Position numbers: made by a program. 64,000 bases of DNA from Escherichia coli (GTDB taxonomy: Bacteria > Pseudomonadota > Gammaproteobacteria > Enterobacterales > Enterobacteriaceae): assembly GCF_011045215.1 (NCBI RefSeq), contig NZ_CP049202.1; one strand, written 5' to 3'. This document shows, piece after piece, positions 44,573 through 50,500 of the stretch; position 1 is the first letter of the stretch, and every line of letters starts with the position of its first letter.

Positions 44573-47500
44573 TAACGAAAGTATCTTAGCGGGCATGAAA
44601 ATGGCAAATAACGGTCAAACATCGTGGCGTTGACAGTTTTGCGATATCAACGCCAACCGGTGTATATTTCATTTGTGGAGTCTCCAGTCTGAGGGAGCTT
44701 TATGCATCCCGTATTGGGCACTATGATGCCGGAAATCTGCGAGGCTCCACACTTTTCCTGCCAACCCCGGCTTCATACTCAAATAGTTGGGATGCGTTCA
44801 TTACATTCTTCCAGGATGCGGATACGGTTCTGAAGTTCTGCAATATTCCGGTCTTTTTCCTGCACCACATTTGCAAGATTCTGACTCTCAGCCATGGCTT
44901 TTTGCACCATGGCAATTGCCAGAGCGCGAAGCTATTCAGGGTCACGGGTGGTACTGAGAAGCGAGATATCCATGCGATGGATTATACGACATCACACATG
45001 GATATTCATTATATTTCATTGAGTTATTGCGTTGCTCTGAACATCTTCGGGTTCTTCCTGGTATACCCATTTTGCCAGGTCATGCCCTTTCACCTGTTGC
45101 CAGTCAACCCCACAGACCAGCCAGTGAAACTCATCCTGTGTGAGATGCCATGTGGCATCACCTTTCCGGGGCCAGCGGAAGCTTCCCCGGTGCAGTCGTC
45201 GGGTACACAGCCATACGCCATGTTTGTCCCACCGGAGAACTTTTATGCGGGAGCGGACTTTATTGGTGAAGACAAAAGCAGCACCGTCATGCCATGCAGC
45301 GTTAAGTTCGTTCTGGACGTACTGTGTCAGTGTGTCGATACCCCGGCGCATATCGACGGGTTTTACGACCAGGAATACGTTATCAGGCGTCAGCATGGCG
45401 AAGAGCCCGGAAAACATCGGTTAACTGAGAAGGCTGGCAGCACATCCGGATACCTCCGGGAAGGAAAAGTGTGACAGGCTCATCCGACAATGGTCTGCCA
45501 TCAGCCATACCGGGAGCGCCAGACACTGAAACTGGAATAATTTCAGGTGCTCTGGCTCGTTTTTCGGCTTTTGCAACATCCTGCGGCCACTGGCGCAGGG
45601 ATTTAAACGGAATGTCGTAAAGTTCACAGTACTGTTCACGGGTAAGGCCGCTTGCGCGCCATGCGGCAACGTGATGTTTTTTCTGATCAAGCGTCCATCG
45701 CATCCTGGGCATTGTTTACTCTCCACAGAAAGAAGTTATACGAATACCGGAATGCTAATGGCGTGAAAATTTCTGTGAAGATGAGGTCCCCGGAACATTA
45801 CCTTCTTCCTGCCATGCAGTGCTATATTCAGCATCCTGCACTCCATTCGGAGTGCAGTTCTTTATGACATACTAGTTTCGCTGAGTACCTCAAATAGCCA
45901 TTGTAATAAGCGCCTCACAACATTAGCTTACAAGCTAATTACAGGTAAGTTAAATTAATTCAGATAATCGCAGGTACACAGGACACTTCATTTAGGGCCC
46001 TGTGGGAATTTCTGCGACAGTACACAGTAACAAAATCTGGTTCATGGGATTGTACGCCGAAATTTCAGAAAATACCGTCACAAAAGCTGGTAACCAGTAA
46101 ATTTGCATGACGTTGAATATATAACGGGTTATGTGACGAGTTTCGGTGTCGAAATCGTTACTTCAGTGACGGTCACTCAATCGGTCGTTTACAACTCCGT
46201 AAAAACTGGTCACGGAAAAATCCAGGTTTCCGGCCAGGAAACCCCAACATAATGGGATTCACATTATTGTTTATAATCCGAACCGCCCCAATAAGTTACG
46301 TCTGATTCATTTTCCCTGAAAACACGCCTCATTTCCGGAGGCGTGTTTTACCCGACAGATTCCAGATTTGTATCACATTGCTGCACGATAAATTGCAACT
46401 ATCTCTTCATGTGTCGCCTGTATCGGGTTCGTCAGCCCACAGGCATCTTTCAGCGCATTTCTGGCCAGTTCCGGTATATCTTCATCTTTCACATTCAGGT
46501 CGCGTAGCCCTGCCGGAATATTAACTTTCTTCGCCAATTCACGGATGGCATTAATACAGACTTCAGCACCTTCCTCGTCATTTTTACCCGTCACGTTCTC
46601 CCCCATTGCAGCAGCGCAGTCACGCAAACGTGCAGCTGCAACTTTACTGTTAAATGCCTGAACATACGGCAGCAGAACGGCATTACATACACCGTGCGGC
46701 AGATTGTAGAAACCACCCAGTTGATGCGCCATCGCATGAACATAACCCAGAGATGCGTTATTGAACGCCATTCCTGCGAGAAACTGAGCATAAGCCATCG
46801 CCTCACGCGCTTTTTCATTGTTGCCATCCTCAACGACCAATGGCAAATATTCCGCAATCATGGTCACGGCTTTCAGTGCACAAGCGTCGGTGATCGGTGT
46901 GGCAGCAGTAGATACATACGCTTCAATAGCATGAGTTAAGGCATCCATACCGGTAGCCGCAGTCAACGGCTTCGGCATACCGAGCATTAACGAGGGGTCA
47001 TTGACAGAAAGCAGCGGAGTCACATGTTTATCCACTATCGCCATTTTGATGTGACGCACTTCGTCAGTGATGATGCAGAAACGAGTCATTTCTGACGCCG
47101 TACCCGCCGTAGTATTGATGGCGATCATCGGCAACTGCGGTTTTGCAGAACGGTCAACACCTTCGTAATCACGAATATCGCCCCCATTGGTGGCTACCAG
47201 CGCAATACCTTTTGCACAGTCATGCGGAGAACCACCACCTAATGAAATAACACTATCACAATTATATTCTTTCAGTAGTTTCAGACCTGCAGCAACATTT
47301 TCTGTGGTTGGATTAGGCTGGACGCCATCATAAATAACGCTAAAAACACTGTGTTCTTCCAGTGCTTTTTGCACATTCCCCGCCATACCTGACTTCGTTA
47401 ACCAGCGATCAGTAACAATCAGGCTTCGACGGAAACCATACCCCGCCATCATTCTGGTTGCTGTCGATAACGATCCCACCCCCAGCATATTTACAGAAGG

Positions 47501-50500
47501 GATAAAAAATGTTGACACACTCATTGAGTTACTCCGAATTTCTGTATACATATTTCAAGCCAGAATAAACCGTAATGTCATGTGTTACGGGTATGACTCA
47601 TCATTTATAGCGATAAATACAAGAATGTCTATTCTGTAGGTTCCACCTTCCCCTGATTTGCAAGCGTCGATTTTTGTGATGTTCATCAGGGGAAAGAGCC
47701 TATGGAAAAACGGCAATACCGCGACTTTTCTGGGGAGTGATCTTTTACTTACATGTTCTGTCCGGTTTATCCCCCGATTCTGTGGATAACCAGTCTGCTG
47801 TTATGTGAGAACCGCCACCGCTCGCCGTAGCCCCAGCGACCAAACGTAGTGAGCGAGTGAGCGAGGAAGCGGAATGTCTACCCCCCCTGAATTGAGTACT
47901 TACGCGCCGGGCTTCCTTCCGCTCATGACCTGATACGCCCTGTCAGACTTGTCTGCTACCAGAGACGCTTACGTGTCAGCACCAGTGATATAAGACGTAA
48001 TGGTCAAAGATCGTGGCGTTGGCACTGTACTGTTCCTCAGCCATCTCATATAGCCGTTCGCACATCGTGGCGTTAACATCATCGGCATCCAGCTTTTCGA
48101 GCAACGGCAGGCACTGGCTTTTTATCAGACATTACCGGATATCAGACCTTCGTTTTATCTTTGCAGACAAGAAACCATTGTCTGGATAATCTTTCGTTAT
48201 TTTCGTCGTAATCCACCAGACCGGCTTCATACAAAAAAGTCATACAGATACAACACTGACGTACAGATATATTCAGTCCGCACGCCATATCAATAACACG
48301 AAACATGACTTCACCATATTTATCCTCCCGTAATTTCATCCAGAGGAGCAGCGATTTACAGTCATCATAAAATAATGCGGTACTGTCCCTGCGTTTCATG
48401 GAGTTGTCACACATAGATAACCTCCTGCGTATGTGGAAATAACATACACACTGCAACAAATATTCCATAAATATTTATATATTAAATTGTATTACCATAA
48501 CCCCGACATAATTTCTTTTTTGTACACCTGCAGACCTCCCTCATCCGGAGGATAATACCCCACACAGATATATTATCATGATATAAATCCTGTTATGGTG
48601 ATTATTATATTATAACCACATCCGCCAGACTGTATTTTTCAGATTCAGAATTGATTTTCACCGGAAAAAACTTTTCCGCTTTTCCCCCCTCTGTGGCGAT
48701 CAGACTGAATTACCGGGTGGGGTCATGGTACACCTGCCAGCATGTTCCATGCTTCTTTCAGATGCAGCCTGACATCACCCCGTTTTGACCTCCCGAAAAA
48801 ACACTTTGCTACTTATATCCCCCGGACACTGTTGTTATTCCTTCTACCACGACTGGCACGCCAACCCATCACGTTACGCAAGTAAGGCTTACTCACCCTC
48901 TTTACTCAGTCCTAACCAGCATACCCGAAGTCGATGTCAGTACCGCCATACTTATGTGAGTACAATGTCGAGTGTGATCGAACCCTTAGTGACTCCCTTT
49001 GGCATCAATTCTGGTGTAACCCGCATTGTCATAACAGGGTCTTTACCAACGTCCAGTAGGAAAATATTCTGGTTCGTCTGAGTCCCCCCACTGATAGTTA
49101 TGGCACTGTCCGGAAGGTTGTTTAACCGATATGTTACACGCAGGCTTCCCGTTCCAGTGGCACGCATGAGTTCTACTTGTCGTTTGAGTGATGTGTCCAT
49201 GGTGATTGAGTCTGGATATGTTATTGTCACTGCAGGTGTCGTGGTATACTGCCCACTAAGATGGGCCCAATCACACTCTTCAGGATAGCCATTTGCTATT
49301 GCATATGGTCCCCCCTTGCGTCCGATTTTTAGACCGTTGGGAGGGTTGTAGATCCCGACAGCTGCAGTATATGCTGGTGCAAAGTTGCTTATTAGCTTGC
49401 CCTGAAAGTGAAATTGGTGAAGACCTTCTGATAGAGACACAGGCATATATAAGGTACGTTGGGAAATCCCATATTTATCAGTAGCTCCTGTTTGCCAACC
49501 TGGGACTATTTGTCCGTTTATTGTACCCTCGAACCTCCAGTCCTGGTCGCGCCAGTGATACATGTCAGTATCCACACACCACTGAAGCCCCTGCCCGCCC
49601 CCGCCCGCCAGTTGCGACGGTCCGAGATATAGATAGCCATTATATACCCCCCCTAGTGGTACGATGATATCTATTACGCTGTCGAATGCGAATGTGCGAA
49701 TCCCGTAGCTTAGCGTGACGGTTCCCGCTAATAGTTCCGCTGGCAGAGTTAACAAAAGGCATGCGATTGTACATTGTTTCAGGTTTCGTAATTGCATATT
49801 GAAATCTCAGTTATAGTCCTGTGTGTTATCCGTTAGCGCGGGTTCGTAGTAGAGCACTCGTGTTTATCTGACAGCCTGAAAAATAGTACACTCTCCGGAT
49901 ATCAGGCTGTCACACCTGGTCACTGATTGACGGGGTGTTTCTCAATTGCCTATGGCGACCTACAGGTTCCTCAGGGATAAACAACACCAAACGTCAGCGT
50001 GGTACTTATCGGTCCCCCTACAGTCGACGCCAGGATTTGGGTCACTGGTGTCAACGAGCAACTGTTCTTCACCGTATCTGAGGCTATTCCCGTGCAGAAT
50101 GGCGTCGGCGTGTCTCCTGAATTTATAGCTATCGGGGCCATACTGCCATCCGCCAGTGTCAGCCACAGATTGCCACTGGACTCCGTCGGGTTATCCACTC
50201 TGTACAGACCAACTTTATTACCGTATGCCTGATGCATCCCTGCAGGACGCAGGGTGAGTGCTGTATTCACCACAGCGTTATTTTCACAGGTCACCACGGC
50301 CTGAAAGGACGGGTGTGTCTGCCTCTGCCCCTTTAGCAAAACCGCCTGAAAGGTATACGTATTACCACTTAATATGGATGCGCCCTCAAACCCCACCTTA
50401 CAGGTGTTCGGCTGGTTTATGATGGTTATCGGGATGGTGATGGTTGTACTACCAGCAGCGATCACATCACATACTGGCAAAAGACTGCAGGCCAGCATCA

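Follow-up and report, generated by a model that had tools for sequence, protein, structure and literature searches.

The best-described relative of the gene considered here is YiaY of E. coli K-12 (P37686), a group III iron-containing alcohol dehydrogenase that is presented in PMC5125639 (after Ma et al. 2014) and PMC10918650 as an NAD-dependent L-threonine dehydrogenase with Fe and Zn; in the former account of Ma et al. 2014, L-threonine/alcohol dehydrogenase activity is reported for the E. coli chromosomal enzyme only. According to PMC3439341, the overexpressed E. coli enzyme acts weakly or not at all on acetaldehyde and isobutyraldehyde, so that its physiological substrate is uncertain. The closest solved structure is that of the iron-dependent ethanol dehydrogenase ADH2 of Zymomonas mobilis (PDB 3OWO/3OX4), of which 3OWO aligns over 1-382 with 546 bits; ADH2 and the enzyme studied here belong to a common FeADH subfamily, cd08176 (as classified in PMC5125639), but ADH2 comes from another organism and has another physiological role. 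In E. coli K-12, yiaY sits between aldB and selB, whereas the gene described here lies on plasmid-type DNA.

Within the window, the whole 64-kb stretch of E. coli DNA that was analysed, an intact coding sequence at 46373..47524 on the minus strand encodes a dehydrogenase of 383 residues; a 392-residue reading frame extending to 47551 was rejected as a mechanical extension of it. The protein is identical to E. coli chromosomal YiaY, also of 383 residues, at 339 of 383 positions (89%), gap-free, and resembles the K-12 enzyme in length, domains, and metal and NAD motifs: it carries the Pfam domains PF00465 (Fe-ADH) and PF25137 (ADH_Fe_C), the residues D194/H198/H263/H277, and GGGS at 96-99. By analogy with FucO and the Zymomonas enzyme, the four residues are taken to be metal ligands and GGGS to be the dinucleotide-binding motif. 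The NCBIfam equivalog NF007363, 'L-threonine dehydrogenase', is matched over its full length (residues 1-383 on profile positions 1-383) with 791.9 bits, above the curated cut-off of 581; the second-best family, lactaldehyde reductase TIGR02638, scores 445, under its own cut-off of 523. The resemblance to YiaY seen in the sequence-only reading was thus correct, and the gene, intact and carried on plasmid-type DNA, is a relative of the E. coli enzyme's gene. It is already known, being annotated as yiaY in RefSeq on E. coli C5 plasmid B, where the encoded protein is identical (WP_061358723.1; P0121).

Outside IS sequences, the window matches plasmid records only. C5 plasmid B matches the region 45800-48200 at 100% identity and the longer segment 44797-55126 at 99.8%; C5 plasmid A matches 10906-24751 at 99.9%. 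Equating the whole window with C5 plasmid B was ruled out, as the two are collinear only at 44797-55126 and in a few other pieces, and another segment corresponds to plasmid A. A full-length counterpart of the window is absent from the searched collections, so that its plasmid status is read from its content; on that basis the DNA looks plasmid-like rather than chromosomal. The index has the identical dehydrogenase in 154 assembly blocks, with no contig longer than 200 kb among them. All eight of the places looked at show the same block of fimbrial operon, rop (called in seven of the eight), yiaY and IS66 tnpA, with ParE/Phd, CcdAB, StbAB and colicin genes in the vicinity of one or another. 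In the window, the fimbrial operon is of the chaperone-usher type (PefC/AfrB-type usher, PapD-type chaperone; 48952..54355, minus strand), and in none of the eight places is this yiaY allele without it. The most likely setting of the gene is the IS-rich cargo of a large, livestock-type E. coli plasmid.

On the left, the gene is followed by the end of an IS66-family element (45016..45801, minus strand; tnpA 45383-45712, tnpB 45016-45417; NF047593, NF033819 / PF05717, and the RefSeq annotation of C5 plasmid B), whose tnpA and tnpB sit 660 bp past the yiaY stop codon. Its tnpC starts below 44974 and is interrupted in the window, with an IS21-family element lying within it (42606..44635, plus strand; istA 42606-43778, istB 43775-44575; right end ~44635); positions 44500-44635 match the IS21 end in contig L002 at 97%. 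The IS66 element is intact in the relatives L103, L104 and L109, and C5 plasmid B lacks the IS21 element at the corresponding position. A spacer common to the related plasmid contigs L086 and L087 follows at 45802..46052, with the initial ~40 nt of an HTH gene, cut off at 45802, at its left end, and after it, at 46053..46244, comes a region resembling the accessory sequences of cer, the ColE1-type multimer-resolution site. This region is 79% identical to positions 5308-5504 of the colicin plasmid pRHB26-C20_3 (L093), which abut that plasmid's cer-type core, and lacks a recognisable adjacent XerC/XerD core of its own; a fuzzy search of the window with the cer core sequence gave no match in 45-49 kb.

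On the right, the segment 47650..47875 matches, at ~75% identity, over 5000 small Col-type plasmids, most of them mobilizable, just downstream of their ColE1-type origin, and resembles the ori-proximal sequence of pBR322. It is followed by a truncated rop of 50 residues (47976..48128, minus strand; PF01815 profile positions 15-51 of 57, E = 1.7e-9; also annotated in RefSeq). Of the parts of a working ColE1-type replicon, namely RNAI/RNAII and a full-length rop, Rfam found neither RNA (window at gathering scores, 45000-49000 in E-value mode), and only the segment downstream of the origin is recognisable; the right flank holds what is left of a ColE1-type replicon and does not make up a working one. 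The earlier statement that both flanks run into IS remnants therefore holds for the left, where IS66 is interrupted by IS21, but not for the right, which at 47650-48128 consists of this remnant and the truncated rop. A composite transposon bounded by insertion sequences and carrying yiaY was likewise rejected, as IS66 with its nested IS21 lies on the left only and the right is made up of ColE1 remnant, rop and fimbrial operon.

Between these flanks, the gene forms part of a 1.35-kb module (46291-47641) consisting of an upstream region of ~117 bp, the coding sequence and a hairpin terminator. The conserved 3' flank (46291..46372, minus strand) contains a terminator-type hairpin at 46319-46349, AAAACACGCCUC-loop-GAGGCGUGUUUU, with an RNA folding energy of -23.1 kcal/mol (z = -3.1). 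Homology to chromosomal yiaY ends at 46372, and this flank is common to plasmid-borne copies only (97% identity in L089, 81% in L002, L003 and L088). The conserved 5' flank (47525..47641, minus strand) comprises the Shine-Dalgarno sequence GGAG at 47532-47535 and the ~117 bp of presumed promoter region; it is ~85% identical in L002, L003 and L088, partially present in L089 and L095, and without homology to the chromosomal upstream regions of E. coli, E. albertii and Citrobacter. A scan of 47525-47641 for consensus sigma-70 promoters gave no site, which leaves expression of the gene a presumption. The palindrome TTTATCGCTATAAA (47604..47617, minus strand), 93-80 nt upstream of the ATG, might, speculatively, serve as a regulator site; it is two positions off the FNR consensus TTGAT-N4-ATCAA, the FNR-box search having given two-mismatch palindromes only, and similar motifs are present in some other plasmid copies. 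At the module ends, inspection of the alignments by eye showed neither an inverted repeat nor an Xer core.

The same module, with its flanks, is found on the F-type plasmids pRHBSTW-00300_2 (CP056643.1) and pABW_A19b (NZ_CP067309.1) and on contigs L088 and L089. The plasmid-borne copies differ from the window gene in sequence (DNA identity 85% for L002 and L088, 93% for L089) and in their neighbours, adjoining stbAB/parM and a DUF465 gene, or a K88-type fimbrial gene, where the window copy adjoins rop and IS66. Members of the lineage at large occur on F-type plasmids, on IncK2/Z plasmids and on a contig from Salmonella that encodes a Rep3-family replication protein. In a neighbour-joining tree, the window gene and other copies from plasmid contexts or short contigs form a clade with 100% bootstrap, the copies with the shared module being its closest relatives; all plasmid-context copies group at 84%, separate from chromosomal E. 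coli and E. albertii, and their clade is sister to the Escherichia chromosomal genes with 33% bootstrap only. The dN/dS ratio is 0.06-0.08; strong purifying selection has kept the gene intact.

We favour, with a probability of about 85%, the explanation that this is a plasmid-borne YiaY-family dehydrogenase, a xenologue that split from the E. coli chromosomal gene long ago, moves as a 1.35-kb unit and is kept by purifying selection. The unit at 46291-47641 recurs, flanks included, in other F-type plasmid contexts, and the plasmid gene would most likely supply its host with a second dehydrogenase of the YiaY family. While the identity of the gene, its family, plasmid context, module boundaries, divergence and selection are shown by the analysis, enzyme activity, expression and a benefit to the host are inferences. 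A broader proposal, to which we give slightly less than even odds, is that a distinct yiaY lineage has long resided on large enterobacterial plasmids, partly as a self-contained promoter-gene-terminator module of 1.35 kb, under strong purifying selection and often beside fimbrial operons. If this is true, the lineage would be more than accidental cargo and would probably serve a metabolic function under selection in the gut, such as anaerobic threonine or alcohol oxidation. The value of the observation is modest: these yiaY homologues form an intact plasmid-associated clade, in which a housekeeping-type dehydrogenase is maintained as plasmid cargo, and they bear on the question of metabolic genes on the virulence plasmids of livestock E. 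coli.

The divergence could instead reflect the donor and not a long stay on plasmids, if the source of the gene was chromosomal, in an unsampled Escherichia-like enterobacterium, and plasmids passed it on afterwards. After the plasmid copies, Escherichia chromosomal genes are indeed the closest by protein identity (88.5-88.8%), and the searches left room for such a donor: the species-wide genome scan had, among the matches listed, E. albertii (89%) and Citrobacter (84%) as the best, with no donor and with not even E. coli or Salmonella among them, and the main E. coli cluster is missing from the listing of the large protein search, whose top entries are artefactual E. coli YiaY sequences with internal duplications (identities were recomputed, the identity column of that search not being used). 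However, plasmid copies with the same flanks differ from each other by a dS of 0.77, which indicates long divergence after the module had formed; the module flanks are shared by no chromosomal locus among ~80 species; and all clusters at 90% identity or more lie on contigs shorter than 204 kb. We consider this origin unlikely.

It is still less probable that the plasmid carries the gene along silent or decaying and without function. Such a fate is seen in some relatives, as the copy on pABW_A19b is split by an IS4-family element and others are N-terminally truncated to 371 or 310 residues, and the pseudogene-rich surroundings and the want of a recognisable promoter would fit with it; against this, the window gene has an intact reading frame of 383 residues with all catalytic residues and a dN/dS of 0.06, conservation extends to its upstream region, Shine-Dalgarno sequence and terminator, and the identical protein recurs in the 154 assembly blocks.

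That the plasmid recently acquired the E. coli chromosomal gene by way of an IS, for which the plasmid location next to IS66 and the place of E. coli YiaY among the nearest chromosomal relatives (89% at the protein level) might speak, is very hard to maintain. DNA identity to the chromosomal gene is only ~83-86% (85-86% against 5051 E. coli chromosomes) and confined to the coding sequence, ending exactly at its ends; relative to the K-12 gene, the DNA is 17% different with saturating synonymous change, the promoter and terminator flanks are unrelated, and GC3 is lower (43.8% against 51.6% in the E. coli gene). The dS between the window and E. coli genes is 0.82, compared with 0.58 between E. 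coli and E. albertii; moreover, the closest relatives are other plasmid copies, and IS66 lies on one side only. The window gene was therefore not copied from the E. coli chromosome in recent times; its place is in a yiaY lineage that is associated with plasmids and has diverged from the chromosomal one. The earlier suggestion of a captured copy is broadly correct, as the gene lies on plasmid-type DNA without chromosomal synteny, but a recent E. coli source does not hold.

The sequence-only reading had started from a chromosomal gene lying beside selC, a tRNA gene known as the site of E. coli genomic islands such as LEE and PAI-I. This premise was mistaken: in E. coli (NZ_CP062249.1) the order is aldB-yiaY-selB-selA, with no tRNA within 7 kb of yiaY, and the neighbours are thus the protein-coding selenocysteine genes selB and selA; yiaY lies at 3,751,235-3,752,386 and tRNA-Sec, flanked by yicJ and setC, at 3,830,781-3,830,875, ~78 kb away. 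Nothing is therefore missing or deleted at the window locus, and a deleted or displaced selC explains nothing, as chromosomal yiaY does not adjoin it; nor does the gene look chromosomal, given that the non-IS matches all lead to plasmids. The absence of tRNA-Sec reported for the upstream region extends to the entire window: ARAGORN found no tRNA gene in the 64 kb, so that no selC emerged to contradict it, Rfam at gathering scores found no tRNA or tRNA-Sec in the window (only ALIL and a group II intron) and, in E-value mode, nothing relevant in 45000-49000, and the best blastn match (word size 7) of E. coli selC in the window is one of 23 nt at 55.4 kb with E 0.18. Comparison with the chromosomal yiaY region gave homology restricted to the coding sequence, without the aldB-yiaY-selB-selA synteny or homologous intergenic flanks of a positional orthologue, and searches of the window for remnants of aldB, selB and selA returned chance matches only. 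That this is a chromosomal yiaY locus whose neighbouring selC was deleted or moved by IS-mediated rearrangement, as the tRNA-free window and the IS66 and IS21 elements on the left might have suggested, has practically no chance of being right, since the chromosomal gene order already refutes it, no aldB, selB or selA remnants are present and the surrounding DNA matches plasmids only. With the gene order checked, the apparent anomaly vanishes and the finding is ordinary. Unlike the selC-associated islands, the window has no tRNA-Sec or fragment of it, and yiaY itself lies outside the selC neighbourhood; all that the locus has in common with them is mobile-element debris.

The surroundings of yiaY in the window are rich in pseudogenes. 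A segment of 2,018 bp that is additionally present in L086 and L087 at window position 47638 is neither an insertion sequence nor an origin; it is pieced together from pseudogene debris, a DMT transporter fragment included.

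The window has a single long open reading frame at this locus, on the minus strand (46373-47551), and both annotation and conservation place its start at the ATG of 47524, with GGAG 8 nt upstream, giving a protein of 383 residues; in the closest relatives, a 1-nt indel puts the more upstream ATG (47551) out of frame. The protein is identical to YiaY of a K-12-type chromosome at 339 of 383 positions (89%), gap-free, scores 791.9 bits against the NCBIfam equivalog NF007363 ('L-threonine dehydrogenase'; cut-off 581), contains both the N- and the C-terminal Pfam Fe-ADH domain, and has the GGGS motif and the Asp194, His198, His263 and His277 positions; the close resemblance to YiaY noticed in the sequence-only reading is thus correct. 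Its nearest solved structure is Zymomonas ADH2 (3OWO), and by family membership it is likely an NAD-dependent, iron-containing dehydrogenase.

The gene very likely represents a long-diverged, selectively maintained plasmid lineage, as judged from its flanks, phylogeny and substitution pattern. Homology to chromosomes of E. coli, E. albertii and Citrobacter is confined to the coding sequence (46372-47515, 77-84% DNA identity), and when 5,426 complete E. coli genomes are compared by megablast, 5,051 chromosomes match part of it at 85-86% identity. In other copies with plasmid context, homology spans a module of 1.35 kb (46291-47641) with both flanks included, at 93% identity in the related locus L089 and about 85% in pRHBSTW-00300_2, pABW_A19b and the locus L088; the flank homology reaches in part into a plasmid contig of Salmonella Braenderup with ccdAB, kfrA and a gene of the Rep3 family. 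Neither flank is found in any of about 80 chromosomal loci compared, from different species. In a neighbor-joining tree, the window gene forms a clade of 100% bootstrap with L089, pRHBSTW-00300_2, L088 and P0007, a homolog from a 1.4-kb contig that is not counted among the copies with known plasmid context. The latter all cluster (84% bootstrap), taking in IncK2/Z plasmids, the Salmonella Braenderup contig, and E. albertii pEA5_1 together with an E. marmotae contig, apart from the chromosomal pair of E. coli and E. albertii (100%).

A chromosomal donor outside the sampled genomes may exist, since the deeper branches have low support (33% bootstrap), the genome scan speaks for at least the species among its listed matches, and those listed from the large protein search do not include the main E. 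coli cluster. Recent copying of the host's own yiaY is rejected: the chromosomal match ends with the coding sequence, the flanks are those of plasmid copies, and by Nei-Gojobori estimates dS to the E. coli chromosome is 0.82 (dN/dS 0.08), to pRHBSTW-00300_2 0.77 (0.06), and between the E. coli and E. albertii chromosomes 0.58 (0.03); the window gene has a GC3 of 43.8%, against 51.6% for the chromosomal one. A pseudogene is rejected by the dN/dS of 0.06-0.08.

On the side of the stop codon, the module ends in a conserved 3' flank of 82 bp with a strong hairpin terminator (46319-46349). It is followed by a cer-like accessory region of about 190 bp (46053-46244), 79% identical to the segment beside a cer-type core in a ColE1-like colicin plasmid, but with no convincing XerC/XerD core next to it in the window; two related contigs, L086 and L087, have a second copy of this region, 76% identical. 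A short spacer common to related contigs then leads to an IS66-family element (from 45801 downward) with tnpA, tnpB and a tnpC broken by an IS21 element; relatives have this IS66 either undamaged or with other IS elements nested in it. On the upstream side, the conserved 5' flank of 117 bp gives way at 47642 to a stretch that matches, at about 75% identity, the ori-proximal region in thousands of small Col-type plasmids, followed by a truncated rop gene, a 90-aa hypothetical gene and a fimbrial operon. This similarity and the truncated rop identify the right flank as a dead ColE1-type replicon fragment without IS, so that the IS remnants reported for both flanks exist on the left only. L086 and L087 (3868-5887) carry an extra 2,018 bp exactly at the module's upstream edge (window 47638), consisting of pseudogene debris including a DMT transporter gene fragment, which is missing from the window and from plasmid B of E. 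coli strain C5.

The expected but missing selC is half right. The absence is real: ARAGORN finds no tRNA in the whole window, Rfam at gathering thresholds yields nothing there but an ALIL pseudoknot and a group II intron, its E-value mode gives only noise at 45-49 kb, and E. coli selC has only chance blastn matches in the window (best E = 0.18). The expectation is mistaken: the order in the E. coli chromosome NZ_CP062249.1 is aldB, yiaY, selB, selA, yibF, rhsA, with no tRNA within 7 kb on either side of yiaY and the tRNA-Sec gene between yicJ and setC, about 78 kb away. selC was confused with selB/selA; its absence is to be expected, and the window has lost nothing. The true chromosomal neighbors aldB, selB and selA have left no trace in it. 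The two Rfam matches are the pseudoknot at 14478-14594 (minus strand, RF01497, 121.5 bits), a frameshift element of IS3-family transposases, and an intron catalytic domain at 20178-20264 (plus strand, RF00029, 63.2 bits), inside a segment 99.9% identical to C5 plasmid A.

Judging from its content, the window appears to be an E. coli plasmid of livestock type, mosaic and rich in IS elements. All its non-IS matches are plasmid records, and no single record in the searched plasmid or complete-E. coli collections covers it or is collinear with it. Its segment 45800-48200 is 100% identical to C5 plasmid B (NZ_CP010124.1, from a cow), a conjugative MOBF plasmid in which RefSeq already names the gene yiaY. 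Identity with plasmid B throughout is rejected, as collinearity is limited to 44797-55126 (99.8%) plus a handful of further segments, among them 58294-61466 (99.8%), and C5 plasmid A matches 10906-24751 (99.9%); this mosaicism suggests that the window stems from a cointegrate of the two C5 plasmids or from a rearranged relative of theirs. The identical protein (P0121) occurs in 154 assembly blocks, every contig being at most 200 kb. All eight inspected places show the same block of PapB-type regulator, chaperone-usher fimbrial operon, yiaY and IS66 tnpA, with the truncated rop called in seven; ParE/Phd, CcdAB, StbAB/ParM, colicin and resolvase genes are found close by in one or another of them. 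Plasmid yiaY copies repeatedly adjoin fimbrial genes or regulators (L089, the loci L090 and L098, and window 48952-54355), among them a K88-type subunit, FaeA/PapI, PapB/DaaA and a Pef/Afr-type operon, a proximity that may have arisen by chance in virulence-plasmid cargo regions. A 471-bp tandem repeat at 9653-10937 (2.7 copies, 99% identical) is probably part of a YadA-like adhesin gene, per the annotation of matching plasmids. The yiaY feature itself is ordinary plasmid cargo with an existing annotation, mildly interesting solely for its membership in a conserved, plasmid-associated yiaY lineage.

E. coli YiaY is described as an L-threonine dehydrogenase with Fe and Zn (Ma et al. 2014, as cited in PMC5125639) and has been used as such (PMC10918650); overexpressed, it shows weak or no activity on acetaldehyde and isobutyraldehyde (PMC3439341). 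In Shigella flexneri, anaerobic conditions induce the chromosomal yiaY through FNR (PMC4229854). In the conserved upstream region of the module, the palindrome TTTATCGCTATAAA (47604-47617) is two positions off the FNR consensus, and a scan upstream of yiaY detects no sigma-70 consensus promoter, so expression and regulation of the module are putative. Several plasmid yiaY genes (the window, the loci L095 and L090, and L002, the pRHBSTW-00300_2 copy) have a conserved palindrome of the type TTTAT-N4-ATAAA about 90 nt ahead of the start codon, and an FNR-like TTGATAATCAATAA stands at a comparable distance from the E. coli chromosomal gene.

Several homologs from the protein search deserve mention. 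P0002, P0003 and P0006, E. coli YiaY entries of 437, 426 and 407 aa, contain internal tandem duplications, either assembly artefacts or real, and topped the homology search through inflated scores. P0082, P0089 and P0073 (contigs of 4.7-4.8 Mb) represent a divergent allele in some E. coli, 82% identical to the query, with residues ~29-70 strongly unlike K-12. Cooperia oncophora is a nematode of cattle; P0127 (KAK6054627.1), in the same 90% cluster, bears the deposited name '1,3-propanediol dehydrogenase [Cooperia oncophora]' and probably reflects contamination of that assembly by an E. coli plasmid.
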